Shown piece after piece: positions 6,869-31,505 of a stretch of 64,000 bases of DNA. How positions within the stretch are numbered: the first letter of the stretch is position 1; every line of letters begins with the position of its first letter. The stretch comes from an uncultured Acidobacteriota bacterium (GTDB taxonomy: Bacteria; Acidobacteriota; Thermoanaerobaculia; Multivoradales; JAGPDF01): positions 65,749 through 129,748 of the forward strand of contig CAWAGZ010000013.1 of assembly GCA_963781755.1 (NCBI GenBank), read 5' to 3'. Made by a program: the position numbers and the translations under genes. Below the pieces are notes generated by a model. The model was not told the origin of the DNA and ran no database searches. It worked only from the letters and a program-made list of their open reading frames with translations.

Positions 6869-7823
6869 TCAGGGGGCGGAGGCCGGCGCCTCGCGCAGGG
6901 GACGGCCCACCTGCTCGTGCGCGTGATAGCTCGAGCGCACCAGCGGCCCCGACTCGCAGTGGGCGAATCCGAGCTCGCCGGCATGAGCCTTGAGCTCGGC
7001 GAACTCCTCGGGCGGGACGTAGCGCTCGACCGGGAGGTGCTTCGAGGTCGGCTGCAGGTACTGGCCGATGGTGAGCACCTCGACGCCCGCCGAGCGGATC
7101 TCCCGCAGGGTCGCCCGGACCTGGGCGGGCGTCTCGCCCAGCCCGACCATGATCCCGGTCTTGACCCGGCCGTCGAAAGCCCCGGCGTCCCGCCGCGAGG
7201 CCGCGTCCGCGAGCAGCGCGAGGCTGCGGTCGTAACGGCTGCCCGGGCGGGCGCGGTGATAGAGCTCCGGCACGGTCTCCACGTTGTGGCTGAAGATCTG
7301 CGGCCGGGCTCCGAGCACGACGTCCAGAGCGTCGGCGACGCCGCGGAAGTCCGGCGTGAGCACCTCCACCGAACAGTCGGGAGCGCGCCGGTGGACGGCT
7401 TCGATCACCTCCGCCCAGTGCCGCGCGCCGCCGTCCTCGAGGTCGTCGCGGTCGACCGAGGTGACCACGACGTGACGCAGCCTCATGCTGGCGACCGCAT
7501 CGGCGAGACGCTCGGGCTCTCCCGGGTCGGTGCCGGCCGCCGGCCGCCCCGAGGTGACGGCGCAGAATCCGCATCGCCGGGTGCAGATCTCGCCCAGGAT
7601 CATGAAGGTCGCGGTCCCGTGCTCGCCCCAGCACTCGTAGATGTTGGGGCAGCGGGCCTCCTCGCACACGGTGTGCAGGCTCAATCCGTCGACCAGACGG
7701 CGCACCGTGTGGTACTGCGCCGGCGTCGCGATCCGGATCCGGAGCCACTCCGGCCGAGGCTCACGCCGCGGCCGCCCGTCCGGTGGCCGCCGCTTCCCGA
7801 TCTGAACCAGTTCCTCCGCCATG
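6869..7823 (-). CDS. lipA: Lipoyl synthase.
   Basis: Internal Met of track ORF 6869..8725: MAEELVQ...CEEARCPNIYECW...CTRRCGFCAV, the radical-SAM CxxxCxxC plus the auxiliary cluster cysteines. Confidence 0.9.
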
Positions 7824-7827
7824 CCCG

Positions 7828-8715
7828 TCAGTCTAGTACGGCCGCCGCAGGCTCGAAGTCGAGGGCGACGTCGAGCGCCGGGGCGCTGTGCGTGATCCAG
7901 CCGACCGAGATCCGGTCGACGCCGGTCTCGGCCACCGCGCGGACGGTCTCCAGGGTGATGCCGCCCGAGGCCTCGAGCAGGACGCGGCCGCGGTTGGCGG
8001 CCACGGCCCGCCGCAGGTCCGCGAGCGCGAAGTTGTCCAGCAGCACGACGTCCGGAGCGGCCGAGATCGCATCCTCGAGCGAGTCGAGCCGGGCCACCTC
8101 GACCTCCACCCGGACGCCGCTTCCGACGTTGTCGCGGGCGCGCCGGACCGCATCGCCCGGTCCGCCCGCCAGGGCCAGGTGGTTGTCCTTGATCAGGACG
8201 GCGTCGTCGAGCCCGAAGCGGTGGTTCGCGCCGCCGCCGCAGCGCACCGCGTACTTCTCGAGCGAGCGCAGCCCGGGGGTCGTCTTGCGCGTGTCGAGGA
8301 TCACCGCCCGGGTCCCCGCCACGGCGTCCACCAGGCGCCGGGTCGCAGTCGCGATGCCCGACAACCGGCCGAGCAGGTTCAGGCTCACCCGCTCGGCGGC
8401 GAGCAACTGCCGGGCCGGGCCCTCGAGCTCCGCCAGCACCGTGTCGGCGGGAACGCGATCGCCATCGGAGGTCCGGCGCTCCAGCCGGGGCGGAGGGCCC
8501 AGTCGAGCGAGGATCCATTCGACCAGCGGCAGGCCGGCGACGACCCCGGGCCGGCGAGCCACGATCCGGCCGCGGGCGCGCGCGTCGGCCGCGATCAGCG
8601 CCCGCGAGGTGATGTCGCCCGAGCGGCCCAGGTCCTCGGCCAGCGCCGCCTCGAGGCACGCGCGCCAGGACGCCTCGGGCGGCAGATCGGGGCCCCCGCT
8701 CTGCGCCGGACTCAT
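7828..8715 (-). CDS. nadC: Nicotinate-nucleotide pyrophosphorylase (quinolinate PRTase).
   Basis: MSPAQSGG...VLIKDNHLALAGG...ASGGITLETV, the QPRTase fold. Start ATG at ~8713-8715 overlaps the nadB stop as ATGA. Confidence 0.9.
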   Translation of the reverse strand: MSPAQSGGPDLPPEASWRACLEAALAEDLGRSGDITSRALIAADARARGRIVARRPGVVAGLPLVEWILARLGPPPRLERRTSDGDRVPADTVLAELEGPARQLLAAERVSLNLLGRLSGIATATRRLVDAVAGTRAVILDTRKTTPGLRSLEKYAVRCGGGANHRFGLDDAVLIKDNHLALAGGPGDAVRRARDNVGSGVRVEVEVARLDSLEDAISAAPDVVLLDNFALADLRRAVAANRGRVLLEASGGITLETVRAVAETGVDRISVGWITHSAPALDVALDFEPAAAVLD

Positions 8716-11448: not shown

Positions 11449-12503
11449 GGGACCGGCAGGGGGTCCGTCGAGCGCAGCCGCCGGCACCCGGCGCGGGCGA
11501 AGCGGTTCAGCGCCTCCTCGGCCTCGCCGGTGAAGTCGAACCGGAACCCGCCGGGCCCGTTGGGGTCGGGCACCGCCACCGCCGACATGCAGTCCTCGAG
11601 GATCCAGATCCTGCGCGCCCACTCCGGATCGATCGACTCCGGGTCGCCGAGCAGGTCCGCCAGGGTGCTGCGCACGCAGTGGCTCGCCGCCTCCCCCGCC
11701 ACGACCACCGCGTCGGCGCCCCGCAGCCGCGCTTCGAGGGCTCGGTTGCGCCGGCCCAGCGGCCGCCCGTCGAAGCCCAGCAGCACCTCGGGAGCCAGCG
11801 CCGAGTAGCTCTCGGACAGCGGCGTCGCCCCTTTCGGCTCGAGGTGGCCGGGAGAGCGCCGCGCCCAGGCGTGGAACAGGCGCGCCTCCTGGACGACCCC
11901 CGACAGGCAGTGCCCCTCGCCCCCGGCCAGGCAGTGCGGAGGCCAGAGGTAGAGCCGGTAGCGGCCGCCCCGTTCCAGGGCCTCGCAGTAGTCGAGCGCT
12001 TGGCGCTCGAGCCAGCGGGGATCTCCGCCGGGTGCCAACCAGGCGGCCAGCGCGGGATCCGGACGCGCCGCGCCGGACCGAACCTCTTCGGCGAGCACTT
12101 CGCGGTGCGCCGTCAGGGGCCGCCCCGAGGCGTCGACCCAGAACTCCGGAGAGAAGATCTGGAACGGCACGTGGGTGTCCAGGGTGGCCGTGATCTCCGA
12201 GATCCGGTGGAGGTGCCGGTAGATCCACCGCGTCAGCCGGTCGACGTCCTCGAGCGCGCCGTTCCCCGTGCGTCCGCCGACGTAGAGCGAGCCTTGCGGC
12301 AGGCAGAAGTCGCGCTGCACGTCGACCAGCAGCAGGTGGATCCGGGCGCGGTCGTCCGCTGCCGCGGCGATGCCGTGATCGCGCCGCCATTCACGCGCCG
12401 CCCCGGCGAGCGCCGGCAGCTCCGGCTGGTAGCTCCACAGCTCCGTGTTCTCGCGCCGGTAGAACGGCGGGACGGGAAGCTCTCTCGTCGGGCGGCTCGG
12501 CAT
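11445..12503 (-). CDS. Isochorismatase-family hydrolase, probable nicotinamidase (PncA-like) with a C-terminal extension.
   Basis: Internal Met of track ORF 11445..13427: LLVDVQRDFC...(Cys in GEAASHCV), an isochorismatase-like Asp/Lys/Cys arrangement. Sits between pncB and nadA. Confidence 0.65.
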   Translation of the reverse strand: MPSRPTRELPVPPFYRRENTELWSYQPELPALAGAAREWRRDHGIAAAADDRARIHLLLVDVQRDFCLPQGSLYVGGRTGNGALEDVDRLTRWIYRHLHRISEITATLDTHVPFQIFSPEFWVDASGRPLTAHREVLAEEVRSGAARPDPALAAWLAPGGDPRWLERQALDYCEALERGGRYRLYLWPPHCLAGGEGHCLSGVVQEARLFHAWARRSPGHLEPKGATPLSESYSALAPEVLLGFDGRPLGRRNRALEARLRGADAVVVAGEAASHCVRSTLADLLGDPESIDPEWARRIWILEDCMSAVAVPDPNGPGGFRFDFTGEAEEALNRFARAGCRRLRSTDPLPVP

Positions 12504-12529
12504 CGATCGGCTCTCCCCGGGCTCGGGCC

Positions 12530-14011
12530 TCAGCCGCGCGCGGTCACGATCGCCTGCGCCTTGGCTTCGTGGAGACGGCGTTCGAGACCCACCGGATAGA
12601 CGTGCGGATTGAGGAAGCGTCGGATCGCCGGATGCAGCGCGGCCAGCTGCTCGCGGGCGCGCGTGCGCGCCGCTTCGAGCGCCGCCGGCGGCGCCAACCC
12701 CCGCCCCGCACGCACCACCGGTCGCAACAACTCCTCCGGCTCGGCTTCGGGCGGGATCCGGCGGTGGCGGAAGGGGTCCGCCGGATCGAAGATCTCGGCC
12801 GGGTCGCCGACGCCGCGCGTGCGGTCCCAGATCATGTCGGCGAGCAGCGTGCCGTCCGGACGCCGGAAGCGGCGCACCTCGAGGACACCGGGAGTGGTCG
12901 TCTTCGCCGTCTGTTCGGAGAGTTTCAGCCGCGGCTGCCAGGGCTCGCCCGGGCGGCGGATCGCTCCCAGCTTGTACACCCCGCCGAGCGCCGGATCGTC
13001 GCGCGCGGTCGCCAGCGCCGTGCCGACGCACCACACGTCGATGCGCGAGCCCTGCAGCTTCAAGCTCTCGATCAGGTGCTCGTCCAGGTTGTTGCTGGCC
13101 AGGATCTCGACCTCCCCGAGCCCGGCCGCGTCGAGCAGACGCCGCGCCTCGATCGACAGGTAGGCGAGGTCGCCCGAGTCCAGCCGGATCCCCGACAGCT
13201 TCTCGCCCCGCGCCTTCATCTCGAGTCCCACGCGCACCGCCTTGCGGACCCCTTCCAGCGTGTCGTAGGTGTCCACGAGCAGGACACAGTTCCCGGGCTC
13301 CACCCGGGCGAAGGCGCGGAAGGCCTCCTCCTCCGAGTCGAAGGAGGAGATCCACGAGTGGGCGTGGGTGCCGCTGACCGGGATCCCGAACAGCTCTCCC
13401 GCGAGCAGGTTCGACGTTCCCGAGCATCCGCCGACGTAGGCCGAACGGCTCGCCGTGACGCCGCCGTCGATCCCCTGCGCGCGCCGGAGCCCGAACTCGA
13501 CCACCGGCTGACCTCCCGCCGCCTGGACCAGACGCGCCGCCTTGGTCGCGACCAGGGTCGGGAAGTTGATCAGGTTGAGCAGCGCGGTTTCGACCAGCTG
13601 AGCGTCCAGGATCGGCGCGCAGACCCGGACCAGCGGCTCGTTGGCGAAGACCACCGTCCCCTCGGGGACGGCGTCGACGTCGCCCGCGAAGCGCCAGCCC
13701 GAGAGGAAGCGCAGGAAGTCACCGGGGAACAGCGGCCGGTCGTCGTTTCCCCGCAGCGACTCGAGGTAGTCGAGGTCGCACGTCTCGAAGCGCAGGCCCT
13801 CGAGATAGGCGAGCGCCGCTTCGAGACCGCAGGCCACGGCGAAGCCGCCGTGAAAGGGCTGGTCGCGGAAGTAGAGGTGGAACGCCGCCTCCAGATCCCG
13901 CTCCGGACGTCGGTAGTGGCCCAGCGCCATGGTCAGCTGGTACAGGTCGGTGAGCAGGCCGAAGGGCCGGCCGTAGAGCCGGTCCAGGATGGAGGGCGTC
14001 CCGGAGGTCAT
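12530..14011 (-). CDS. pncB: Nicotinate phosphoribosyltransferase.
   Basis: Internal Met ([14 protein letters not shown]...) of track ORF 12530..14680: [11 protein letters not shown]...FGLRRAQG...SGTHAHSWI, a NAPRTase match. Confidence 0.85.
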
Positions 14012-18498: not shown

Positions 18499-18658
18499 CG
18501 GGAGCTCGCCGGACCCCGCGACGAACGCCGGGCGGCGGAGCCGACCTCCGTCCGCCCGCGCCGCCCCGCCCGGGGCGGTCGCCCGAGCCTGCCCCGCCAG
18601 CCGGCGGATCCGGGGCCCGAGGTGGTATAGTGCGCCTGTCTTCCGAGGAGGGAGGCAC

Positions 18659-19186
18659 GTGCGCCAATCGGTCGCGGGTCGACAGCCAGACGATCTGACC
18701 ACGGTGCTCGAGCACCTCGAGCCCGAGCTCCGTCGCGTCTTGCTGCGCTTCCGCATCCCCGCGCAGGACGCCGAGGACCTGATCCAGGACACGCTGCTGG
18801 TCTTCCTCACCAAGCGCGCGAGCATCGAGTCGCCGGCGCCCTGGCTCCTGGCGACGCTGCGCAATCGCTGCCTGGTCTACTGGCGCAGCCGCCGCCGCCG
18901 GCTGATCGAAGCGATCGACGCCGGCCTGCTCGAGGTGGTCGCCGGTGGACAGCAGGGGAACCAGGACCGACGCGACCTGGCCCGCGACCTGTCCGGCGCC
19001 GTCTCCCAACTCCCGAATCGCTGCCGCAGCATCCTCCGGCTCCGCTACGGTCTCGAGTGCGGCGCTCCGGAGATCGCCGAGCGCCTCGGCTACCGCCCCG
19101 ACACCATCCGGCAGGCCACTTTGCGGTGCCTCTCGGCGCTCTCGAAGCAGCTCCTCTCGACCGGCTACGCGAAGGAGGCCGTGTGA
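18659..19186 (+). CDS. ECF-type RNA polymerase sigma-70 factor.
   Basis: Sigma region 2 (DAEDLIQDTLLVFL) and region 4 (ILRLRYGLECGAPEIAERLGYRPDTIRQ); a GGAGGGAGG SD before the GTG. Confidence 0.85.
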   Translation: MRQSVAGRQPDDLTTVLEHLEPELRRVLLRFRIPAQDAEDLIQDTLLVFLTKRASIESPAPWLLATLRNRCLVYWRSRRRRLIEAIDAGLLEVVAGGQQGNQDRRDLARDLSGAVSQLPNRCRSILRLRYGLECGAPEIAERLGYRPDTIRQATLRCLSALSKQLLSTGYAKEAV

Positions 19187-20541
19187 TGCCCCAGAACCCG
19201 TCCCGAGACACCTGCGGCGTTCCCGCCGGCGAGCTGCTGAGATTCGCGGCCGGGGAGTCGAGCGGAACCGAGCGGAGACGCATTCTGGAGCACGTGCTCG
19301 CCGGCTGCGAGCGCTGCCGCGAGTCGCTCGACGCGCTGCGCCAGTTGCGCGAGGACGGCCAGGCCGCCGCGGCCGAAGCCGAAGATTCGCCGTCGATCAG
19401 CCGGATCCTCGCCAATCTCGGCGAGCGGGCGGCGCGGATCGAGCGCGAGCGGGCCGAGGCCGCCGTCCAGCTCGAGGACTTCGCGACCCATCCGTACGCC
19501 CGCCAGTGGACGCTCGTCCGCAACAGCCACCGGTTCGACACCTGGAGCTTCTGCGCCGGTCTGCTCGAGGACGCCTTCGAGGCGATGTACGACGATCCGC
19601 GCCGTTCGCTCGAGCTCGCCTCGATGGCGCGCGAGATCGCCGAGCGCCTCGATCCGGAGCCTTACGGCGAACGGTCGGTCCTGGATCTGCGCGGGCGCGC
19701 CTGGGCGCATGTCGGCAACGCCCACCGCGCGCTCGGCGACCTCACCGCCGCCGACCAGGACCTCGGCCGCGCCCGCGAGCTGCTCGAGGAGGGCACCGGC
19801 GATCCGCTCGACGAGGCCGAGCTGCTCTATTTCGAGGCCTCGCTGCTGCGCGGCCAGCGCAATCTGCAGGGCGCGCTGCGCAAGGTCCGCCGTTCGGCCC
19901 GTCTCTACCGCGAGCTGGGCGACGAGCACCTCGAGGGACGCTGCCTGGTCAACGAGTCGAACATCCTCCACGTCGCGGGGCGCGCCGAGGAGTCGATCCT
20001 CAAGTGCCGGGAGGCGCTGGCCAAGGTCGATTCCACCCGCGACCGTCACCTCGAGCTGGCGGCACGCCACAATCTCGCGTGGGCCTTGGTCGATGCCGGA
20101 GAGGTCGATCAGGCGCTGCGGTCGCTGGCCGAGTTCCGGAGCTCCTACCAGGAGCTCGGCGATCAGGCTTCCCTGCTCCGTCTCCAGTGGCTCGAGGCCC
20201 ACATCTGCCAGAAGCTGGACCGGATTCCGGAAGCCGAGGAGCGGTTCCGCGCGACCATCGACGGCTTCGCCGTCGCCGAGCTCCCCTACGAGGTCGCCAA
20301 GAGCTCGCTCGATCTCGCGCTGCTCGAGGTCACCGCCGAGAAGCCCGAGGAGGTCAAGCGCATCGCCGGGGACACCCTCGTGCTGTTCCGCTCCCTGGGT
20401 GTCGCGCGCGAGGCGATCGGAGCGTGGATGGTCTTCCAGCAGGCTGCCGAGGCCGAGGCTGTCAGCGGAGCCCTGATCGAGCGTCTGGCCCGCTACTACG
20501 CCGAGGCACGGCTGCGTCCCGAGCTCCGTTTCGAGACCTGA
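19186..20541 (+). CDS. Anti-sigma factor with an N-terminal zinc-finger (ZAS-like) and C-terminal TPR-like repeats.
   Basis: HVLAGCERCRESL H/CxxC motif; the ATG overlaps the sigma-factor stop (TGATG) with an AAGGAGG SD; long helical repeat region. Confidence 0.7.
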   Translation: MPQNPSRDTCGVPAGELLRFAAGESSGTERRRILEHVLAGCERCRESLDALRQLREDGQAAAAEAEDSPSISRILANLGERAARIERERAEAAVQLEDFATHPYARQWTLVRNSHRFDTWSFCAGLLEDAFEAMYDDPRRSLELASMAREIAERLDPEPYGERSVLDLRGRAWAHVGNAHRALGDLTAADQDLGRARELLEEGTGDPLDEAELLYFEASLLRGQRNLQGALRKVRRSARLYRELGDEHLEGRCLVNESNILHVAGRAEESILKCREALAKVDSTRDRHLELAARHNLAWALVDAGEVDQALRSLAEFRSSYQELGDQASLLRLQWLEAHICQKLDRIPEAEERFRATIDGFAVAELPYEVAKSSLDLALLEVTAEKPEEVKRIAGDTLVLFRSLGVAREAIGAWMVFQQAAEAEAVSGALIERLARYYAEARLRPELRFET

Positions 20542-20576
20542 GCCGCGCGCCGCAGCGCGCGCCCACCGTCATCGTC

Positions 20577-21962
20577 TCAGTAGAAGGGCTCGAGCTCCGG
20601 CCACGAGTCGGACTCGAGCGTGGCCTTGACGTCGTTCATGAAGTGATCGGCGTCCGCGCCGTCGACCAGGCGATGGTCGTAGGTGATCCCGAAATAGGAC
20701 ATGACCCGGATCGCGATCGTGTCGCATCCGTCGGCGTCCGTGACCACCACCGGCCGCTTCTCGATCGTCCCGATGCCGAGGATCGCCACCTGCGGCTGAT
20801 TGATCACCGGGGTGCCGAAGAGCGAGCCGAAGACGCCGGGATTGGTGATCGTGAACGTCCCGCCCTTGAGCTCGTCGGGGCCGAGTTTCTTGCTCCGGGC
20901 CCGGTCGGCGAGGTCGTTGGCCGTCCGAGCCAGTCCGATCAGGTTCATCTCGTCCGCGTGCCGGATCACCGGCACCACCAGCCCCCGATCGAGCGCGACC
21001 GCCATGCCCAGGTTGATGTCCTTCTTGAACACGATATTGGTGCCGTCGATCGCGGCGTTGACCTTGGGGTTGACCTTGAGCCCGTTGCACACCGACTTGA
21101 AGATGAACGGCATGTAGCTGAGCTTGGTGCCGTTGACCTCCAGGAACTTCCGCTTGGCCCGCTCCCGCGCCCGGTGGACCTTGGTGAAGTCCATGTGGAA
21201 GACGGTCGTGACGTGAGCCGAAGTGTCCTTCGAGTAGCGCATGTGCGCGGCGGTGATCTGCCGGATCTTGGACATCGGCTCGATCACCACGTTCTCGTCC
21301 GGCGTGTACGCCGGCACGTAGAAGCCGCCCGGCGCCCGGGCGGGCTGCGTCGGCGCGGCAGTGGCCGCCGTTCGCGCTCCCTGCGCTCCTCCGGCCGGCT
21401 GCTGCTCGACGTAGGAGAGGATGTCGCGCTTCGTGACCCGGCTGTGGACTCCGGTACCCTGAACCTGGGCGAGGTCGACTCCGTGCTCGCGCGCGATGTT
21501 GCGCACCAGCGGCGACGAGAGCCGACGGAGCCGATCCTCCAGGGATCCCGCTCCTGGAGACGCGGGCGCCGCGGCCGGTATGGCGCGGGCGGAAGCCGTC
21601 GCGGCCGCAACCGGAGCGGGCGCGGGCGCAACCGGCGCGGGCGCCGCCGCGGCCGGAGCGGGAGCCGGGGGCGACTTCGTCGCCGCCGCGGGCTGCGCCG
21701 GGGCAGCCGGAGTCGTCGACTCCCCGCTCTCCCCGATCACCGCCACCACCGCGGCCACCGGCACCGTCTCGCCCGACTGGTTGCGGATCTCCAGCAGCAC
21801 GCCCGACGCCGGGCTCGGAATCTCCGCGTCCACCTTGTCCGTCGAGATCTCGAACAGCGGCTGGTCCCGCTCCACCGTCTCGCCCACCTTCACCAGCCAC
21901 TTCGTGATCGTCCCTTCGGCGATCGACTCACCCATCTGAGGCATCACGACTTCCGTCGCCAT
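20577..21962 (-). CDS. Dihydrolipoamide acyltransferase (E2) of a 2-oxoacid dehydrogenase complex.
   Basis: Lipoyl domain (EISTDKVDAEIPSPASG), an Ala/Pro linker, a peripheral subunit-binding domain, and a catalytic domain with DHRLVDGADADHF. Confidence 0.9.
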   Translation of the reverse strand: MATEVVMPQMGESIAEGTITKWLVKVGETVERDQPLFEISTDKVDAEIPSPASGVLLEIRNQSGETVPVAAVVAVIGESGESTTPAAPAQPAAATKSPPAPAPAAAAPAPVAPAPAPVAAATASARAIPAAAPASPGAGSLEDRLRRLSSPLVRNIAREHGVDLAQVQGTGVHSRVTKRDILSYVEQQPAGGAQGARTAATAAPTQPARAPGGFYVPAYTPDENVVIEPMSKIRQITAAHMRYSKDTSAHVTTVFHMDFTKVHRARERAKRKFLEVNGTKLSYMPFIFKSVCNGLKVNPKVNAAIDGTNIVFKKDINLGMAVALDRGLVVPVIRHADEMNLIGLARTANDLADRARSKKLGPDELKGGTFTITNPGVFGSLFGTPVINQPQVAILGIGTIEKRPVVVTDADGCDTIAIRVMSYFGITYDHRLVDGADADHFMNDVKATLESDSWPELEPFY

Positions 21963-21971
21963 CGCTCGTCG
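21621..21971. repeat. Direct repeat copy 1 (~350 bp): the lipoyl-domain coding 5' end of E2 plus 9 bp upstream.
   Basis: Identical to 28080..28429 apart from one mismatch (tcccttcgg vs tcccctcgg). Confidence 0.85.
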
Positions 21972-22066
21972 TCTCCCGGGTCCTCATCGCGCTCGCCGCT
22001 GGCGCCCGGCGGGGCTGTGGCAGCGCGAACGCACACCTTATCAGCCCGACCCTGCGGCCCGGAGCG

Positions 22067-22100
22067 CGAAAACGGCCGCCGGGTCACCCCGGCGGCCGCC
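22067..22100 (-). terminator. Rho-independent terminator downstream of the lipoprotein gene.
   Basis: Minus-strand GGCGGCCGCCGGG-GTGA-CCCGGCGGCCG followed by TTTTCG. Confidence 0.55.
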
Positions 22101-22129
22101 GTTCTCGGATGGGTGCTCTGAATCCAGGC

Positions 22130-22516
22130 TCAGAAGGTGCAGCCGTAAGCCGCCATCGAAGTCTTTGCGGCGTCCATCGCCTGCGTGCACGCGGTGGCGA
22201 GTCCGGCCTTGCCGGTCTCGGTCGCGGCCGCCTGCTGCCAGGCCGCCCGGGTCTGATCGAACGCCGACTGCAGCTGCTCCTTGGCCGCCTCCGGCACGTG
22301 CTCGTCGATGCAGGCCAGGTACTTCTGCACGTAGTCGTCGCACTCCGGGACACCGAAGGACGCCTCGGCCGCGGGCGCTTCCTCCGCGGCCGGAGCCGCC
22401 TCGGTCGCGGCGGGCTGCTCCGCCGCCGGTGCCGGGGCGGGGGCCGGAGCCTGCTTCTGGCATGCGGCGAACAGCGCCAGCACCGCGACGATCGACAGGA
22501 TCTCTCTACGAACCAT
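22130..22516 (-). CDS. Small lipoprotein (signal peptide + lipobox LFAAC), function unknown.
   Basis: AAGAGGAGG SD; Ala/Pro/Glu-rich linker, then a Cys-containing C-terminal domain. Confidence 0.6.
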   Translation of the reverse strand: MVRREILSIVAVLALFAACQKQAPAPAPAPAAEQPAATEAAPAAEEAPAAEASFGVPECDDYVQKYLACIDEHVPEAAKEQLQSAFDQTRAAWQQAAATETGKAGLATACTQAMDAAKTSMAAYGCTF

Positions 22517-22630
22517 GGTGGACCTCCTCTTCAGTCGAAATCGAAAAAGTAGTGGGAGTCTACAACGCGGGACTCTTCCGGTACACGCGATCGATGACGA
22601 AACAGGGACAGGCGCCGGCCGGGTACGGGC

Positions 22631-23605
22631 TCAGGTCCGCACCAGGTCGCGGATTCTCTCCACCAGCTTTTGGGCGTTCGGTAGGTAGAACTCCTCGAGC
22701 GGCGGACTGTAGGGCACCGGCGTGTCCGGGCAGCCCAGGCGAGCGACCGGCGCGTCCAGGAACCAGAACCCCTTCTCTGCGATGCGCGCCGCGACGTCCC
22801 CGGCGACGCTGCCGGTGGCCGGCTCCTCCGAGAGGACCAGGGCGCGACTCGTCCTGCGCACCGAGGCCAGGACCGTCTCCTCGTCCATCGGCTTGAGCGT
22901 GCGCAGGTCGACGACCTCGACCTCGACCCCTTCGTCCGCCAGGACCTGAGCGGCCTCGAGCGCGACGTGGACCATCGCCGCCCAGGTCACCACGGTCGCA
23001 TCGCGTCCCTCGCGCGCGATCCTCGCCCGGCCGATCGGAACCGTCTCCGCTCCCTCGGCGAGCACGCCCTTGATCCGGCGGTAGAGGAACTTGTGCTCGA
23101 AGAAGAGCACCGGGTTCGGGTCGCGGATCGCGGATCGCAGCAGACCGTAAGCGTCCTCCACCGTCGAAGGGCAGACGATCTTGAGCCCGGGCGCGCGGTG
23201 GAAGTAGGCCTCGGGATTGCCGCTGTGGAACGCCGAGCCGTGGACGCCGCCGCCCGAAGGCCCGCGCAGCACCACCGGGACAGGTTGCCCCCACCGGTAA
23301 CGGTTGGTGCCGGCGAAGTTGACGATCATGTCGAAGGCGTTGGCGATGAAGTCGATGAACTGGAACTCGACCACCGGCCGCAGGCCCATCATCGCCGCGC
23401 CGATCGCCGCGCCGGTGAAGCCGGACTCGGAGATCGGGGTGTCTACGATCCGGCGCGGGCCGAACTCCTCCAGCAGCCCCGCGGTCACCTTGAACGCGCC
23501 GCCGTAGCGCCCGATGTCCTCGCCGATCAGGAAGACCCGGTCGTCGGCGCGCATCTCGTCCTGGAGGCCCTTCCGGACCGCTTCCAGGTAGGTGATCTCG
23601 GTCAC
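22631..23605 (-). CDS. 2-oxoacid dehydrogenase E1 component beta subunit (transketolase-like).
   Basis: GTG start (VTEITYLEAV...) inside track ORF 22631..23797; FLIGEDIG...GGAFKVT...ESGFTGAAIGAA. Confidence 0.9.
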   Translation of the reverse strand: MTEITYLEAVRKGLQDEMRADDRVFLIGEDIGRYGGAFKVTAGLLEEFGPRRIVDTPISESGFTGAAIGAAMMGLRPVVEFQFIDFIANAFDMIVNFAGTNRYRWGQPVPVVLRGPSGGGVHGSAFHSGNPEAYFHRAPGLKIVCPSTVEDAYGLLRSAIRDPNPVLFFEHKFLYRRIKGVLAEGAETVPIGRARIAREGRDATVVTWAAMVHVALEAAQVLADEGVEVEVVDLRTLKPMDEETVLASVRRTSRALVLSEEPATGSVAGDVAARIAEKGFWFLDAPVARLGCPDTPVPYSPPLEEFYLPNAQKLVERIRDLVRT

Positions 23606-24645
23606 CCCTCCGTCTCCTCGTAGACTCCCTCGAGCGCGCGCTCGGCGGGGGGCAGCGGGCTGGCGAGCGCGAAGTCGACGTCGGCGTCCAGCTCGCGGTC
23701 CAGCTCGGAGACGATCGCCTCGAGCTCCTCGCGCCCGGCCAGCCCGCTCTCGAGCAGGTGGCTCTCGAAGCGGGCGATGGGGTCCTTCTCCCGCCACTCC
23801 GCGAACAGCTCCGGCGGCACGTACGAAGCGTCGTCGTGCTCGGCGTGCCCCTTCATGCGGAAGGTCTTGACCTCGATCATCTGCGCGCCGGCGCCGCGGC
23901 GCGCCGCCTCGACCGCGGTCCGCGTGGCCTCGTAGACCGCCAGCACGTCGTTGCCGTCGACGATCCGGGCCGGGATCCCGTAGGCCGCGGCGCGCTGCGC
24001 GAGGTCGCGGATCTTCATCTGGCGCGAGGTCGGCGTCGAGTAGGCGTAGCCGTTGTGCTCGGCGATGACCACCAGGGGCACCTCGAGCACCGCGGCGAGG
24101 TTCATGCCCTCGTGGAAGTCGCCGGTGGAGGTCCCGCCGTCGCCGATGTAGGTCAGGGCGACGAAATCCCGGCCGAGGTAACGGGAGGCGAAGGCGACGC
24201 CGGTCATCACCGGGATCAGGGCGCCGAGCATGGAGATCGGCGAGATCAATCCGCGCGACAGGTCGCCGAAGTGGAGATTGCAGTCCTTGCCGCCGGTCGG
24301 GCTGGTCGCCCGGGCCATGTACTGGGTGAAGACCTCCCGCGGCCTCACTCCGCGCACGAGGAGCGAGCCCAGGTTGCGGATCAGCGGCGCCAGGACGTCG
24401 TCGGCTTCGAGCGCGAACGCCGAGCCGACGGACACGGCCTCCTGGCCGCGCGAGGAGTAGAGACCTCCCACCACCTTGCCCTGGCGGTAGAGGTTCGTGA
24501 GCCGGTCCTCGACCCGGCGGTTGAGCTGGAGGAAGCGGTAGAGCTCGAGCTGGCGCTCGCGCTTCAGCGTCGTCGGGGCCAGTTCTTCGCGGGCCCGGTC
24601 GGTGCTGGGGTGGAGCGGGCCGTAGTCGCCGTCGAGTGCGGTCAT
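23602..24645 (-). CDS. 2-oxoacid dehydrogenase E1 component alpha subunit (TPP-binding).
   Basis: YIGDGGTSTGDFHEGMNLAA, a TPP-binding motif; the stop overlaps the E1beta GTG (GTGA). Confidence 0.9.
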   Translation of the reverse strand: MTALDGDYGPLHPSTDRAREELAPTTLKRERQLELYRFLQLNRRVEDRLTNLYRQGKVVGGLYSSRGQEAVSVGSAFALEADDVLAPLIRNLGSLLVRGVRPREVFTQYMARATSPTGGKDCNLHFGDLSRGLISPISMLGALIPVMTGVAFASRYLGRDFVALTYIGDGGTSTGDFHEGMNLAAVLEVPLVVIAEHNGYAYSTPTSRQMKIRDLAQRAAAYGIPARIVDGNDVLAVYEATRTAVEAARRGAGAQMIEVKTFRMKGHAEHDDASYVPPELFAEWREKDPIARFESHLLESGLAGREELEAIVSELDRELDADVDFALASPLPPAERALEGVYEETEG

Positions 24646-24688
24646 GCGTCGTCGCCGACTCTACCGCGAACGGCGCGGGGTCCGCGTC

Positions 24689-26635
24689 TCAATCCCCGGC
24701 CTCGAGCGCCTCGTGCACCTTCTCGAGCAGCCGGCGCGGCGAGAAGGGCTTCTGGACGACCGGGAAGGTGCGCCCGAGCGGAGCGCCGATACCGACCACC
24801 TCCTCGGCGTAGCCGGACGAGAGCAGGACGCGGGCGTCCGGCCAGCGCTCGAGCAGGCGACGGACCAGGTCGACTCCGCCCGGACCGGGGACCAGGAAGT
24901 CGATGAGCAGAAGCTCGACCGGCTCCGCCGACCGCCGAGCCAGGGCGAACGCCTCCGCGGCGCCGCCCGCCTCGAGAACGCGGTAGCCGGAGCCTTCCAG
25001 CGTCCTGCGGACGATACGCCGCACGGCGGCGTCGTCGTCGACGACCAGCACTGTGGGGGCTTCGGCGCGGCCGATCGTCTCCGGCGGCTCCCGGAGGATC
25101 TCCTCGGGGCCCGCCGACGCTTCGGCGGTCGGCAGGTAGACGGTGAAGACCGATCCGCGCCCGACCTGCGACGTCAGGGCCATCGATCCCCCGCTCTGGC
25201 GCACGATCCCGTAAACCGAAGAGAGTCCGAGACCGGTGCCCTTACCCGGCTCCTTGGTGGTGAAGAAGGGCTCGAAGATGAGCTCGCGGATCTCGGCCGG
25301 GATGCCGCCGCCGGTGTCCGCGACCCGCAGCTCGACGTAGCTGCCCGGCGCCAGGCCGACGGCAGCGGCTTCATCCGCGTCGAGCTCGACCGCAGAAGAG
25401 GCGATGGTGAGCCGCCCGCCGCTCGGCATGGCGTCGCGCGCATTGAGCGCGAGGTTGAGCAGGACCTGCTGCATCTGGCTGGCGTCGACGTACACGGGCT
25501 CGAGCCGCTGGGCGAGGCGCAGCGCGATCTCGACGTCCTCGCCCAGGATCCGGCGCAGGATCTTCTCGACCTGGCCGACGACCTCGTTGAGATCGGTCGA
25601 CGCCGGCCGCAGCACCTGCCGGCGGCCGAAGGCGAGGAGCCGGCGCGTCAGCTCCGCCGCCCGCTCCGAGGCTCTGAGGATCTGGGCGATCGCCGCCTGG
25701 TGGTCGTCCGACTCCGGAAGACCGTGCTGGACGAGCTCGCCGTAACCTTGGATCACCGTCAGCAGGTTGTTGAAGTCGTGCGCGATGCCCCCGGCCAGAC
25801 GTCCGATCGCTTCCATCTTCTGGGCCTGGAGGAGCTGCTCGCGCGCGGCCAGCAGCTTCGACTCCGTGTCCTTGAAGTCCGTGATGTCGGCGGCGACGCC
25901 GCGCAGGCCGACGATCCGGCCCTCGCGCTCGATCGTCCGGCCGAAACTTCGGACCCAACGGATCGCTCCATTGCGATGGCGGACCCGGTACTCCAGGGGC
26001 ACCGCCTCACCCGTCTCGAACGCCCTGGTGACGAAGTCGGTCACCGTCGCCCGGTCTGCGGGAACCACCATCTCGAGCCAAGGTGTCCCGACCAGCTCAT
26101 CGGCCCGGTAGCCGAGCGCCGGCTCGATCGAGGGGCTCAAGAAGGAGAACCGGCCCGCGGCGTCGAGCTCGAACAGGACGTCGTTGAGCTCCTCGACCAG
26201 CTCGCGGTAGCGCGCCTCCGACTCGCGCAGCGCCGCTTCGACGCCCTCGCGGGAGCTCACGTCCAGGACCGCGACGAGCCGCCCGGGGCGGCCCTCCCAT
26301 TCCAGCGGCTGGCTCGCGATCTCCGCCCGCAGCTCTTCGCCCCGCCGGGTGCGGTGAATCCAGACGCCGGAAGTCTCGGCGCCCGGCGGCGCCTCGCGCA
26401 CCGACCGCTCGAGCCGGCCCACCTCGACCTCGGGTCGGATGTCGCGGATGGTCATGGCGAGGAACTCCTGGCGCGACCAGCCGTAGCGGGCGACCGCCGC
26501 CCGGTTGACGGCGAGGAAGGCGAGGGTCTCGACGTCGTAGACCCACATCGGCAGCGGATTGGCTTCGAACAGGAGCCGGTTCTCCGCCGCGTTCTCTCCC
26601 GCGGACGGATCGGGCTTCGCCTTCCGGGCGGTCAC
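24689..26635 (-). CDS. PAS-domain hybrid sensor histidine kinase / response-regulator receiver.
   Basis: Two PAS-like segments, HisKA ([15 protein letters not shown]), HATPase ([12 protein letters not shown]...DTGGGIP...GTGLGLS), and a C-terminal REC (VLVVDDD...LLIDFLVPG...K). Embedded between the E3 and E1alpha genes. Confidence 0.85.
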
Positions 26636-26648
26636 GGGCGGCTCCGGC

Positions 26649-28421
26649 TCAGGAGTGGATGGCGTGGCCGAGCGCGGCGTGCGCGGCCTCCATGACGGCC
26701 TCCGAGAGCGTCGGGTGCGCGTGAATGGTGCGCATCAGCTCCTCGGTGGTGACCTCGCCGTGGAGCGCCACTCCCGCCTCGGCGATCAGGTCGGTCGCGT
26801 GCGGACCGATGATGTGAACGCCCAGGATCTCGTCGTACCGGGTCTCGCGGACGATCTTGACGAAGCCGCCGGTCTGGCCCAGGATCCGGGCCTTGCCGCT
26901 GGCCATGAAGCTGAACTTCCCGACCGCCACGTCGTAGCCGCGCTCGCGTGCCTTGGCTTCGGTCAGCCCGACGCTGGCCACTTCCGGATCGCAGTAGGTG
27001 CACGACGGCGTCTGGTCGTAGTCGAGCGGTCGCACGTCGAGCCCCGCCATGTGCTCGACGGCGAGGATCCCCTCCGCCGAGGCGACGTGCGCCAGCCAGG
27101 GCGTGTTGACCACGTCGCCGATGGCGTAGACGCCCGCCGCCGAGGTGCGCATCAGCGGATCGATCCGGACGTAGCCCCGGTCGAGCTCGACGCCCAGCTG
27201 CTCGAGCCCCAGGTCCTCGGTGACCGGCGCCCGGCCCACGGCGACGAGCAGCAGCTCGGTCTCGAGCTGGATCTCCTTCGTGCCTTGGCGCAATGACATG
27301 CGCACCCCGGACTCGGTCTGCTCCGCCGTCTCGAGCTGGGTCGAGGTCAGGACCTTGATGTCGCGCTTCCGGAACTGCCGCTCGAGCTCCTTGGACACCT
27401 CTTCGTCCTCGATCGGCAGCGCCCGCGGCAGCATCTCGACCAGGGTCACCTCGGCGCCGAACGAGCGGAACACGGAGGCGAACTCGGTGCCCACCGCCCC
27501 GGCGCCCAGGACCGCGATCGACTTGGGGACCCGCTCGAGCTCGAGCAGATGATCCGAGTTGAGGATCCGCTCGCCGTCGGTCGGCGCGACCCGGATCTCG
27601 CGCGGGACCGAGCCCGTGGCGATCAGGACGAAGCGGGTCGAGAGCGTCCGGGTCGAGCCGTCCTTCGCCGCGACCTCGACCGCGTGCGGCCCGGAAAGAC
27701 GGCCGCGGCCGTGGATCCCCTCGACCTTGTACTTCTTGAACAGGCTCTCGATCCCCTTGGCGCTCTTGTCCACGACGCCGCGCTTGTACTCGTGGACCTT
27801 CGCCACGTCGAGGGTGGGCTCGCCGACGCCGACGCCGAACTGGTCGGCGTGCCGGATTCCGTCGAGCACCTCGGCCGAGTGCAGGAGCGCCTTGGTCGGG
27901 ATGCAGCCGCGGTGGGTGCAGGTCCCGCCGAACTTGGGGTCCTTCTCGACGCAGGCCACCCGGAGCCCGAGCTGGCCGGCGCGGATGGCGGCGACGTAGC
28001 CGCCCGGCCCGCTGCCCACGATCACCAGGTCGTAGTCGAAGTCGCCGGCGGCGGCCTCCGGCGGCGACGCCTTCGCCGCCGCGGGCGCAACCGGCGCGGG
28101 CGCCGCCGCGGCCGGAGCGGGAGCCGGGGGCGACTTCGTCGCCGCCGCGGGCTGCGCCGGGGCAGCCGGAGTCGTCGACTCCCCGCTCTCCCCGATCACC
28201 GCCACCACCGCGGCCACCGGCACCGTCTCGCCCGACTGGTTGCGGATCTCCAGCAGCACGCCCGACGCCGGGCTCGGAATCTCCGCGTCCACCTTGTCCG
28301 TCGAGATCTCGAACAGCGGCTGGTCCCGCTCCACCGTCTCGCCCACCTTCACCAGCCACTTCGTGATCGTCCCCTCGGCGATCGACTCACCCATCTGAGG
28401 CATCACGACTTCCGTCGCCAT
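26649..28421 (-). CDS. lpd: Dihydrolipoamide dehydrogenase (E3) with an N-terminal lipoyl domain.
   Basis: Residues 1-~115 are identical to the E2 lipoyl domain; then FAD/NAD Rossmann (DLVIVGSGPGGYVAAIRA), a redox-active disulfide (GGTCTHRGCIPTK) and a dimerisation domain (HAHPTLSE). Confidence 0.9.
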   Translation of the reverse strand: MATEVVMPQMGESIAEGTITKWLVKVGETVERDQPLFEISTDKVDAEIPSPASGVLLEIRNQSGETVPVAAVVAVIGESGESTTPAAPAQPAAATKSPPAPAPAAAAPAPVAPAAAKASPPEAAAGDFDYDLVIVGSGPGGYVAAIRAGQLGLRVACVEKDPKFGGTCTHRGCIPTKALLHSAEVLDGIRHADQFGVGVGEPTLDVAKVHEYKRGVVDKSAKGIESLFKKYKVEGIHGRGRLSGPHAVEVAAKDGSTRTLSTRFVLIATGSVPREIRVAPTDGERILNSDHLLELERVPKSIAVLGAGAVGTEFASVFRSFGAEVTLVEMLPRALPIEDEEVSKELERQFRKRDIKVLTSTQLETAEQTESGVRMSLRQGTKEIQLETELLLVAVGRAPVTEDLGLEQLGVELDRGYVRIDPLMRTSAAGVYAIGDVVNTPWLAHVASAEGILAVEHMAGLDVRPLDYDQTPSCTYCDPEVASVGLTEAKARERGYDVAVGKFSFMASGKARILGQTGGFVKIVRETRYDEILGVHIIGPHATDLIAEAGVALHGEVTTEELMRTIHAHPTLSEAVMEAAHAALGHAIHS

Positions 28422-28429
28422 CGCTCGTC
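28080..28429. repeat. Direct repeat copy 2 (~350 bp): the lipoyl-domain coding 5' end of E3 plus 9 bp upstream.
   Basis: See copy 1 (21621..21971). Confidence 0.85.
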
Positions 28430-28737
28430 TCCAACTCCGCTTCCGTCGCTTCGTCTCGAGGATCCGGGACGACCCTCCCGGAAGGATCCGTACCTTATCA
28501 GCCGCGCTGGACCGTGAAGGTGCGGCGGTGTCCGGTCAGGCCGAGGGAGGCGACGTCCGGAACGCGTCGGCATGCTCCTCCGGAACCGGTTCGGGCCTCT
28601 CGCAATGGAGGGCCCCGGGCCCTCACCTGCGCTCCTCGGGACGCTTGACCGGGACTGCTCGGCGATTCGAGGGAGCGCGCCCTCGTCGAGCTTCCTCCGG
28701 AGCATGCCGACGCGTTCCGGACGCCGCCCTCGAGGTC

Positions 28738-29595
28738 TCAGAAGGGATCGAGCGGATCCGCCTTGTACCGCCCGGGACGCTCCTCGACGATGCGCCCGAC
28801 GGGGGTGTCGGCGTCGTGCTCGAAGATCGAGAGCCAGCCCCCGGCGGCGGCGCGCGGGATCCACTCCTTCTTGGTCGCGAGCGTGGTCACCGGGTAGAGG
28901 TCGTAGGCCATGATCCAGGGATAGGGGACGTGCACGGCGTGGGGGACGAGGTCGGCCCAGAAGACGGCACGGGTCGCGTCCCCGCCGCCGCCGTCCAGAG
29001 TCACGACGCACAGGTCCGCGTTGTGTCCGGGCGCCTTGACGGCGCGCACCCCGGGTACGACCTCGGCTTCGTCGTCGAACAGCTCGACGACGCCGGCCTC
29101 GAGCAGCGGCTCCCAGTTCTCCGGGAAGTAGCTCGCCCGGTCGCGCTCGTTCGGCGCGCGCGCGTGCGCCAGCTCGCCGCGCTCGATCCAGTAGCGGGCG
29201 CGGGAGAAGGTCGGCACCAGGCGCTCCCCCTCCCGGCGCGTGTTCCAGCCGCAGTGGTCGAAGTGGAGGTGGGTGAGCAGGACGTGGGTGACCTCCCCGG
29301 GATCGAACCCCGCCTCGGCGAGCGCCGCGGGCAGCCGGCGCGCGGAATCGTCCATGCCGTTCTGATCGCGGAAGCGTTCGTCGTGCTTGTCGCCGATACC
29401 GGTGTCGATCAGGACGAGGTCGCGCCCGGACTCGACCAGCAGGCTGTTCGTGCCCATCCGGATCCGGTTGCGCTCGTCCGGCGGCTTGACCCGGCTCCAG
29501 AGCACCTTCGGTACCGCGCCGAACATGCCCCCGCCGTCGAGGCGGAAATCGCCGTCGGAGAGCAGATGGAGCTTGAGACCGCCGAGCTCGAGCAC
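28738..29595 (-). CDS. MBL-fold metallo-hydrolase.
   Basis: HLHFDHCG (HxHxDH) and downstream His/Asp ligands. Confidence 0.8.
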   Translation of the reverse strand: MLELGGLKLHLLSDGDFRLDGGGMFGAVPKVLWSRVKPPDERNRIRMGTNSLLVESGRDLVLIDTGIGDKHDERFRDQNGMDDSARRLPAALAEAGFDPGEVTHVLLTHLHFDHCGWNTRREGERLVPTFSRARYWIERGELAHARAPNERDRASYFPENWEPLLEAGVVELFDDEAEVVPGVRAVKAPGHNADLCVVTLDGGGGDATRAVFWADLVPHAVHVPYPWIMAYDLYPVTTLATKKEWIPRAAAGGWLSIFEHDADTPVGRIVEERPGRYKADPLDPF

Positions 29596-29617
29596 GGTCC
29601 GGACTCTACCGCCTCCG

Positions 29618-30121
29618 TCACTGCTCTCCCGCCCTGCCGGCGCACACCGGACAGGGGGAGCAGCCGGCGTCGAACACGACCTCCCAGCGCCCGTCCGGCC
29701 GGCGCCGCCAGACCGAGTTGAAGGTGCCGCTCACGACCCGCTCCTTGCCGGTCTTGTCCTTCGAGCGCAGCGTCCAGGGGCCACGTGTCAGACCGAGGTT
29801 GCCGTCTCCGGAGAGCTCGACGAGCTCGGGGTGCCATTCGATCAGGGCGCGGTCCGGCCCGAAGAACCCGCCCCACGACTTCACGATCGCGTCGCGTCCC
29901 CGGGTCGCGGTCGAGCCCGAGACGAACACGGCGTCCTGGGCGACGTAGCCGGCGAACCTCCCGGCGTCGTCCGCCGCCACCGACGCCGCGAATCCCAGCT
30001 CCGCCTGCCGCAGCTCCTCGGTCCGGGCGGCGCGTCCGCCGTCCTCGCCCGCCGCCGCCATCCCGGCGGCCACCAGCGCCACCGCTCCGCCCACGATCCA
30101 GGTGACTCCCCATCTGCGCAT
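29618..30121 (-). CDS. Secreted SnoaL-like/DUF4440 (NTF2-fold) protein.
   Basis: Signal peptide; [29 protein letters not shown], typical of the NTF2-like DUF4440. Confidence 0.55.
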
Positions 30122-30440
30122 CGCGACCTCCTTCGGTGTCCCAGGATCTACGTACCTCCGGAGAGATGGTTCCCCACTCCGGCTTCGCGGAGCTCCCTGT
30201 CGAGGCCCGGCGCGACAGAGGCTTTCGGTGACGGGTCGCGCGGGGCCTCGACCGTCGGAGCGGACGCCGAGGCCGAGCCGCTTCGTAGCGTCCCTTCAAC
30301 AGAAAGTCTTCGCGGGTCCGGCCAAAGCGGGGCGGGGGCCGGCAGGCGCTCCCGACGGCACCTCGCCCACCCCCGCGGGAAGTTGTCTCCGACGCTCGTC
30401 GCGGCGCGGCCGCGAGGCTCCGCGCGACGACCCCAGGTCG

Positions 30441-31505
<1,065 letters not shown>

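Follow-up and report, generated by a model that had tools for sequence, protein, structure and literature searches.

Near-identity of the E2 and lipoyl-E3 gene starts in an Acidobacteriota 2-oxoacid dehydrogenase cluster supports recent gene conversion

Among dihydrolipoyl dehydrogenases (E3) that carry a lipoyl domain of their own, P64k of Neisseria meningitidis has a solved lipoyl-domain structure according to Tozawa et al. 2001, as cited in PMC6270654, and PdhD of Mycoplasma hyopneumoniae is lipoylated in vivo at K42 (PMC7873978). Here we describe a 2-oxoacid dehydrogenase cluster in a 64,000-nt stretch of an uncultured Acidobacteriota bacterium (contig CAWAGZ010000013.1, positions 65,749 to 129,748; hereafter the window, G+C = 71.5%), in which a lipoyl-bearing E3 and the dihydrolipoyl acyltransferase (E2) begin with almost the same sequence. 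Lipoyl-bearing E3 as such is already known, and this locus is a further case, one with a cognate-derived domain, apparently recurrent conversion and a conserved motif in the promoter region. Bacterial paralogues are well known to evolve in concert, with tufA/tufB and the rRNA operons as dispersed examples that do so by gene conversion, and the tandem lipoyl repeats of E2p are thought to be kept similar by recombination.

The cluster lies entirely on the minus strand in the order lipoyl-E3, hybrid histidine kinase, E1alpha, E1beta, a small lipoprotein-like gene, a hairpin and E2, and it holds the only two lipoyl domains in the window. The initial annotation, made from the sequence alone, had reported a near-identical repeat of about 350 bp with a single base difference at the starts of E2 and E3, and both an ungapped comparison at offset 6459 and blastn recovered this repeat with the same limits, as 349 identical positions out of 350 (Table 1), although the end coordinate 21971 first given was one base too far. 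On the coding strand the shared sequence runs from 8 nt before each ATG (21962 for E2, 28421 for E3) through codon 114 (−7 to +342 in blastn, counting the A of ATG as +1), so that the encoded proteins are identical over residues 1-114, comprising the lipoyl domain and an Ala/Pro linker, rather than over the roughly 115 residues originally counted. The sole mismatch (T at 21915, C at 28374) distinguishes GAA from GAG at Glu16 and is synonymous. The two direct paralogous segments are spaced 6.46 kb apart, and in the fixed-offset comparison identity drops to background at once on both sides of the repeat, in agreement with the immediate upstream divergence described before; the assignment of the two genes as E2 and lipoyl-bearing E3 is likewise backed by Pfam and NCBIfam matches.

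To place this repeat among its relatives, we set the first 76 codons (228 nt) of E3 against those of E2 across 12 genomes and built a neighbour-joining tree with bootstrap. The closest genome matches to the window are Thermoanaerobaculia and Holophagales metagenome-assembled genomes (MAGs) within the Acidobacteriota, and we refer to the fetched loci by handles such as L002. Within a genome, E2 and E3 lipoyl segments share 99.6% of their nucleotides in the window, 99.6% in L002, 100% in L164 and 94.7% in L167, compared with 83-89% in each of the other eight genomes, and identity between the homogenised genomes (window, L002, L164) is only 85-91%. A phylogeny of the lipoyl domains against their orthologs had been proposed as a check; run together with counts of synonymous differences, it returned E2 and E3 as genome-wise sister pairs with bootstrap 100 in the window, L002 and L164, 94.5 in L169 and 82 in L167. 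Synonymous differences between E2 and E3 number 1 in 76 codons in the window, 1 in 76 in L002 and 0 in 76 in L164, versus 9-20 in the other pairs. The fast-evolving linkers follow the same pattern, being common to both genes within a genome and unrelated between genomes: E2 and E3 of L002 both carry PPQVEID repeats, and E2 and E3 of the window both carry the same Ala/Pro run.

On these comparisons, homogenisation of the E2 and E3 lipoyl segments is independent in the window, L002 and L164, and the contrast between within-genome and between-genome identity excludes a shared ancestral state. The sequence data thus support recent gene conversion (concerted evolution), probably episodic in the clade, as the explanation of the near-identity. 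The earlier suggestion of recent conversion or duplication is narrowed accordingly: conversion stands on within-genome identity, the tree and synonymous sites, and a fresh duplication does not, since the fusion is old. Our overall explanation, to which we assign a probability of roughly 0.8, joins three elements, namely recent non-reciprocal recombination between the 5' ends of E2 and E3, an old lipoyl-E3, and a 12-mer that acts as a cis-element of the E3 promoter and is common to E2. Under this explanation, non-reciprocal homologous recombination between the two direct paralogous segments would have left the 350-nt identity, with a conversion tract that starts just ahead of the ATG and stops in the linker, where the E3-binding and FAD domains oblige the proteins to differ. 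Such conversions would recur sporadically in the clade with varying tract length, sometimes taking in leader and promoter.

Tract anatomy across genomes bears on this proposal (Table 1). The 3' limit always falls within the linker, where the proteins must diverge (E3-binding domain in one, FAD domain in the other), and in L164 and L167 the converted tract takes in the promoter region. L164 shows graded identity, at 100% from −100 to about +290, 99% from −200 to −100, 92% from −300 to −200 and roughly 83% beyond that as far as −480, and this stepped profile suggests nested conversion events, with an older long tract probably overlain by a newer short one. In this Holophagales MAG (GCA_020637315.1), about 770 nt are duplicated at 7481-8290 and 11883-12680, made up of about 480 nt of intergenic DNA plus the lipoyl domain. 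Two considerations count against our account of the conversion: residue signatures and the 12-mer disagree on the direction of transfer between E2 and E3, the former hinting that the window's shared sequence is E2-like and the latter being of E3 type; and a few genuine differences may have been lost in assembly, the two copies being very similar to begin with. A literature search on lipoyl domains and gene conversion found no relevant paper, within incomplete coverage.

Table 1 Features of the cluster in the window, conversion tracts and insertions before E2 in related genomes
Feature	Position	Strand	Details
Repeat copy A	21621..21970	minus	8 nt before ATG plus codons 1-114 of E2; comparison and blastn
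Repeat copy B	28080..28429	minus	8 nt before ATG plus codons 1-114 of E3; 349/350 nt same as copy A
Motif GGCTGATAAGGT at E3	28492..28503	minus	ends 70 nt before E3 ATG; proposed extended −10
Motif GGCTGATAAGGT at E2	22035..22046	minus	ends 72 nt before E2 ATG; proposed extended −10
Window tract	−8 to +342 relative to ATG		blastn
L002 tract	−11 to ~+398 relative to ATG		blastn
L167 tract	~−90 relative to ATG (start)		similarity starts exactly at motif
L164 tract	~−480 to ~+290 relative to ATG		
Terminator-like hairpin	22068..22099	minus	12-bp G+C stem capped by a GUGA loop and followed by UUUU; 21 nt lie between its end and the E2 12-mer downstream
Insertion before E2, window			lipoprotein-like gene and hairpin
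Insertion before E2, L001			di-haem oxidoreductase gene
Insertion before E2, L167			gene for unknown 420-aa (membrane) protein
Insertion before E2, L164			510 nt of copied intergenic DNA
Lipoyl-domain-bearing dihydrolipoyl dehydrogenase (E3), 590 aa	26649..28421	minus	PF00364, PF07992, PF00070, PF02852; TIGR01350 566 bits vs cut-off 409
Hybrid sensor histidine kinase (PAS, HisKA, HATPase_c, REC), 648 aa	24689..26635	minus	Pfam and NCBIfam; 13-nt gap from E3, 43-nt gap to E1alpha
E1 alpha subunit (ThDP-dependent, heterotetrameric type), 347 aa	23602..24645	minus	PF00676
E1 beta subunit, 324 aa	22631..23605	minus	PF02779, PF02780; NF006667 354 bits vs cut-off 321
Small lipoprotein-like gene, 128 aa	22130..22516	minus	signal peptide with LFAAC, four Cys; between E1beta and E2
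E2 dihydrolipoyl acyltransferase, 461 aa	20577..21962	minus	PF00364, PF02817, PF00198; TIGR02927 449 bits vs cut-off 423

The second element shared by the two genes is the 12-mer GGCTGATAAGGT upstream of each ATG. It had been described as lying at the same distance from both starts, and it is indeed present at both, but with the E3 site one base away from where it had been placed and with spacings of 72 nt (E2) and 70 nt (E3). Shuffles predict 0.01 matches in the window; the search returns these two, and tolerating one mismatch adds no other. Far from being frequent and without positional bias, its exact 11-nt core GCTGATAAGGT is rare, with 5 sites in about 2.2 Mb (fetched Acidobacteriota loci plus the window), each of which reads in coding orientation and precedes a lipoyl-domain ATG by 69-83 nt, at E3 and E2 of the window and at E3 of L001, L163 and L167. 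The motif recurs with one mismatch at the equivalent place before E2 of L167 and as TTGATAAGGTA before E3 of L081. Upstream of E3 in L081, L001, L163 and L167 it is kept although its flanks have diverged between species, which argues that the motif is under selection and strongly positional. This rarity and positional conservation across species back the reading, already put forward in the initial annotation, of a shared promoter or operator element, whose molecular role we infer.

The 12-mer is most likely a functional cis-element of the E3 promoter region, probably an extended −10. At both window sites TGn directly precedes a TAnnnT hexamer (TGATAAGGT), giving the extended −10 form TGnTAAGGT, and TAnnnT variants occupy the same position elsewhere, as GGTAGGAT in L164 and before E2 of L001 and L166, and as CGATAGGGT in L002. 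A −10 function would give a leader of about 65 nt and predicts transcription starts near 22028 (E2) and 28485 (E3) on the minus strand. Extended −10 promoters can do without a −35 element. TGnTAnnnT occurs at 6 sites in the 64-kb window, 4 of them intergenic and facing a gene, one of these sites lying 27 nt before an extracytoplasmic function (ECF) sigma gene.

Several observations weigh against a −10 role. The count of TGnTAnnnT does not exceed that in shuffles (6 observed, 6.7 expected), the hexamer TAAGGT agrees with TATAAT in only 3 of its 6 bases, and a scan for sigma-70 consensus promoters found no site in 20000-30000. There is no conserved −35 hexamer, L081 having a 17-nt deletion where one would fall, and the 11-12 conserved positions exceed what a generic −10 needs, leaving room for a regulator site. 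Moreover, neither the 62-64 nt between the 12-mer and the repeat nor the 60 nt upstream of the 12-mer shows E2-E3 similarity above shuffles in the window, and with leaders thus unrelated, common descent of the two 12-mers is not demonstrable there.

A somewhat unlikely alternative takes the 12-mer as the operator of a dedicated transcription factor, or as an alternative sigma site, that co-regulates E3 and E2, in place of a housekeeping −10. It would account for the 11-12 positions kept across species whose E3 proteins are about 70-75% identical, a degree of conservation beyond what TGnTAnnnT requires, and for the lack of a recognisable −35. Yet the site is neither palindromic nor repeated in the window, it contains the TGnTAnnnT arrangement in textbook form, and the variants GGTAGGAT and CGATAGGGT at the same position retain the TAnnnT core only. 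As for an alternative sigma factor, a sigma-28-type reading of GCTGATAA (compare GCCGATAA) was dropped on inspection, the −35 element TAAA being absent 15-16 nt upstream at either site.

Two further observations concern the motif. One-mismatch matches to the 11-mer occur within the lipoyl coding sequence of low-GC relatives (ACT GAT AAG GT, encoding T-D-K-V), and we considered whether they hint at a decayed upstream lipoyl domain; these matches were judged coincidental because their position relative to the ATG does not fit and because the window encodes TDKV with other codons. Separately, TGGTATAGT at 18623-18631 on the plus strand, 27 nt before the ECF sigma gene (18659-19186), is a second good candidate for an extended −10. 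The ECF sigma gene is followed by a TPR-protein gene, the pair being convergent to E2, and this arrangement is kept beside E2 in L162, L163, L165, L166 and L168.

Under the extended −10 reading, the presence of the same element at E2 would follow from the layout of the operon. In the window, an inserted gene and a hairpin separate E2 from the genes upstream; E2 would then be cut off from the operon and transcribed alone, and we propose that it carries the same element for this reason. The hairpin has four U only, and a terminator scan requiring at least 5 T in 8 reports none in 20000-30000. An insertion before E2 goes with a −10-like element of its own at E2 in the window, L001, L167 and L164, and in 3 of these 4 genomes the start of E2 appears to have been copied recently from that of E3. 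In L016, L162, L163, L165 and L166, E2 directly follows E1beta (gaps of 35-78 nt), which leaves no room for the full motif at its usual distance, and the E2 and E3 lipoyl domains have diverged. The E2 12-mer could be what is left of an earlier and longer conversion from E3, or could have been selected for co-regulation, L164 and L167 suggesting descent from E3 by analogy.

We also entertain, as a tentative and on balance doubtful extension, that what moves repeatedly between E3 and E2 in this clade is a portable 5' cassette, made up of a specific promoter or operator element of 11-13 nt, the ~65-nt leader behind it, and the lipoyl domain plus linker. After the operon had been split, conversion from E3 would then supply E2 with a promoter recognised by the same factor as that of E3, perhaps a dedicated regulator in place of the housekeeping sigma. 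Four genomes underlie the connection drawn here between splitting and conversions that carry a promoter. If the cassette idea were true, E2 and E3 expression would be kept coupled.

Returning to the repeat itself, its near-identity could in principle be an assembly artefact, a hazard that the initial annotation reasonably raised, in which similar copies had their differences collapsed by graph simplification or consensus polishing. The 350-nt repeat is longer than common k-mer sizes, which makes such a collapse conceivable, but we consider it improbable. One copy-specific mismatch survives, both junctions are in frame with intact downstream domains, and assemblies made independently in other projects (L002 and L164) show near-identity of the same kind. 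Assemblers evidently do not homogenise such copies as a routine, since divergence of 11-17% is kept in eight other genomes, seven of them from other records. Even a collapse would still require copies far more alike than unconverted paralogues.

Still less probable, indeed very improbable, is a brand-new duplication in which E3 (or E2) took over the 5' end of its neighbour, and with it a lipoyl domain, only recently in this lineage. Near-identity is what a fresh duplication would give, but the distribution of lipoyl-E3 speaks for an old fusion. The same operon with a plain E3 is found in many relatives, the fusion being present in a subset (L001, L002, L016) and in about 90 protein clusters that combine PF00364 with E3 domains. 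L081, whose E3 is 88% identical to that of the window and which also agrees with it in the gene upstream, the intergenic stretch and the kinase that follows E3, has a lipoyl-E3, as do 11 further loci, so that close relatives consistently carry the fusion; it is present in 12 of the 12 genomes examined. For these comparisons, eight further long contigs holding both lipoyl-E3 and E2 came from exact-protein look-ups, and a metagenome scan gave no new lipoyl-E3 plus E2 locus among 80 returned loci. The E3 lipoyl domains of L016, L162, L165 and L166 group as orthologues in a clade apart from E2 (bootstrap 93.5), with a signature of its own and 86-88% identity to E2, which implies that the fusion predates these species. 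By this evidence the lipoyl-E3 fusion is old in the clade, and an old fusion together with an orthologous E3-lipoyl clade in some lineages makes the near-identity a matter of conversion rather than of first duplication. Purifying selection keeping the lipoyl domains identical without recombination has next to no chance of being the explanation, for although the N-terminal 24 residues are invariant in nearly all copies and so attest to strong selection on the domain, the homogenised synonymous sites rule out selection alone, and a fast-evolving linker that is identical within genomes and unrelated between them, with sharp tract edges, fits it no better.

Annotation and sequencing errors at these loci also came to light. 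Cluster P0095, a 473-aa protein named dihydrolipoyl dehydrogenase (a plain E3), apparently comes from the contig bearing L001, and translation of L001 10001-11824 yields lipoyl domain, linker and E3 core in one frame from an upstream ATG; the two together indicate that automated choice of start codons may hide the lipoyl-E3 architecture in databases. Frameshifts occur in the G+C-rich Ala/Pro linkers of E3 and E2 in L016 (10001-10400 and 13837-14260) and L165 (11929-13358), the L165 E2 being split into two gene calls, and they look like homopolymer or low-complexity sequencing errors and not biology.

The two repeat-bearing genes appear intact and in frame. E3 joins its lipoyl domain and a complete E3 core in one continuous reading frame, with the lipoyl domain at residues 4-76 (PF00364, E=1e-20), the Ala/Pro linker, and the FAD/NAD/dimerisation core from about residue 128. 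Its catalytic signatures are intact, with the redox motif CTHRGC at 168-173 (C168-C173) and the HPxxxE dyad at 569-574 (H569/E574), and the lipoyl-lysine motif TDKVD is present, predicting lipoylation at Lys43. E2 consists of a single lipoyl domain, the E3/E1-binding domain and a catalytic domain whose DHRxxDG motif is intact (DHRLVDG at residue 429). Among solved structures E1alpha is closest to Thermus 2-oxo acid dehydrogenase 1um9 and to E1alpha chains of pyruvate (PDH) and branched-chain (BCKDH) dehydrogenases, with similar scores, and the E1 subunits score equally against pyruvate and branched-chain enzymes. E1beta starts with GTG, overlapping the E1alpha stop (GTGA).

The hybrid histidine kinase between E3 and E1alpha is also found 3' of E3 in L081, while the 11 remaining lipoyl-E3 loci lack it. 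The kinases of mitochondrial PDH and BCKDH, which are GHKL/His-kinase-like, dock onto the lipoyl domains of E2. The small lipoprotein-like protein gave no match in Pfam and NCBIfam searches and has 1149 representative homologues at E<=1e-3 (407 at E<=1e-10), mostly of 110-150 aa with the C-terminal ~80 residues in common, an unnamed, widespread family of small proteins.

A further element of about 180 nt lies upstream of the E3 promoter motif, at 28549-28728 of the window, between that motif and a Lactamase_B-family gene (28738-29595, minus strand). It is closed by a 37-nt inverted repeat (arms 28549-28585 and 28692-28728) with a 30-bp perfect core, is single-copy in the window, and its region has a minimum free energy (MFE) of −174.6 kcal/mol (z = −3.7). 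In the L081 element five helix positions are changed on both arms and pairing is still perfect, and L162, L165, L166 and L164 also have long inverted repeats at this intergenic position, though their sequences differ (arms of 21-35 nt, 124-171 nt apart). A permissive Rfam search of 19000-31000 and of the L164 upstream regions matched no known RNA family, giving one weak, chance-level hit in each, and cross-group alignment with consensus folding gave inconsistent alignments. The element may be a structured RNA or a maintained DNA palindrome.

Taken as a whole, the locus is a clear but fairly ordinary case of concerted evolution, and it does not overturn the current understanding of 2-oxoacid dehydrogenase complexes. 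Its interest lies in a well-resolved natural series of domain-level conversion between two genes of one complex, with unconverted, old, fresh and nested tracts, and in the conserved 11-mer, which is among the few candidate promoter elements from phylogenetic footprinting in Thermoanaerobaculia. There are practical consequences as well: assemblies from short reads can be broken or distorted by the exact repeats of 350-770 nt within these operons, and the lipoyl domain of E3 is sometimes lost in gene calling.

Among described systems, P64k and its N. gonorrhoeae homologue (PDB 1BHY/1OJT, 1GJX, 5U25) share with the window E3 an N-terminal lipoyl domain, an Ala/Pro-rich linker and a complete E3, and the PDB relatives of the window E3 include 5u25 (aligned over residues 22-585) and P64k 1bhy. 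In a database search the P64k lipoyl domain was about 86% identical in amino acids to Neisseria E2p fragments, with E. coli E2p domains far less similar, so that in Neisseria, as in the window clade, the E3 lipoyl domain evidently derives from the cognate E2; this origin is not unique to the window clade. What sets the window apart is the degree of identity, 99.7% at the DNA level between its E2 and E3 copies as opposed to about 86% protein identity in Neisseria, together with an E1 of alpha/beta type and an E2 with a single lipoyl domain. The window E3 core scores 360-370 bits against plain E3s (M. tuberculosis, pea, Thermus) and 277 bits against P64k, and this closer relation to plain E3s, along with plain-E3 operons in sister Acidobacteriota, suggests a fusion independent of that in Neisseria and thus an apparently independent origin of lipoyl-bearing E3 in Acidobacteriota.

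PdhD of M. hyopneumoniae resembles the window E3 in having its lipoyl-lysine near residue 42 (TDKVD Lys43 here), with lipoylation experimental there and predicted in the window, and neither an identical E2 domain nor gene conversion is brought into connection with it in its description (PMC7873978). The E2p of E. coli and of other Proteobacteria (e.g., PDB 7B9K, with three domains aligned) also has highly similar lipoyl modules with Ala/Pro linkers in one complex, but those repeats are tandem within one gene, whereas the repeats in the window start two genes 6.5 kb apart and in some genomes appear to drag promoter and leader along. Finally, the window clade shows the same hallmarks as tufA/tufB and the rRNA operons, namely within-genome identity above that between species, homogenised synonymous sites and sharp tract ends, with the difference that only a domain-sized 5' module of two otherwise unrelated genes appears to have been converted, and not whole genes.

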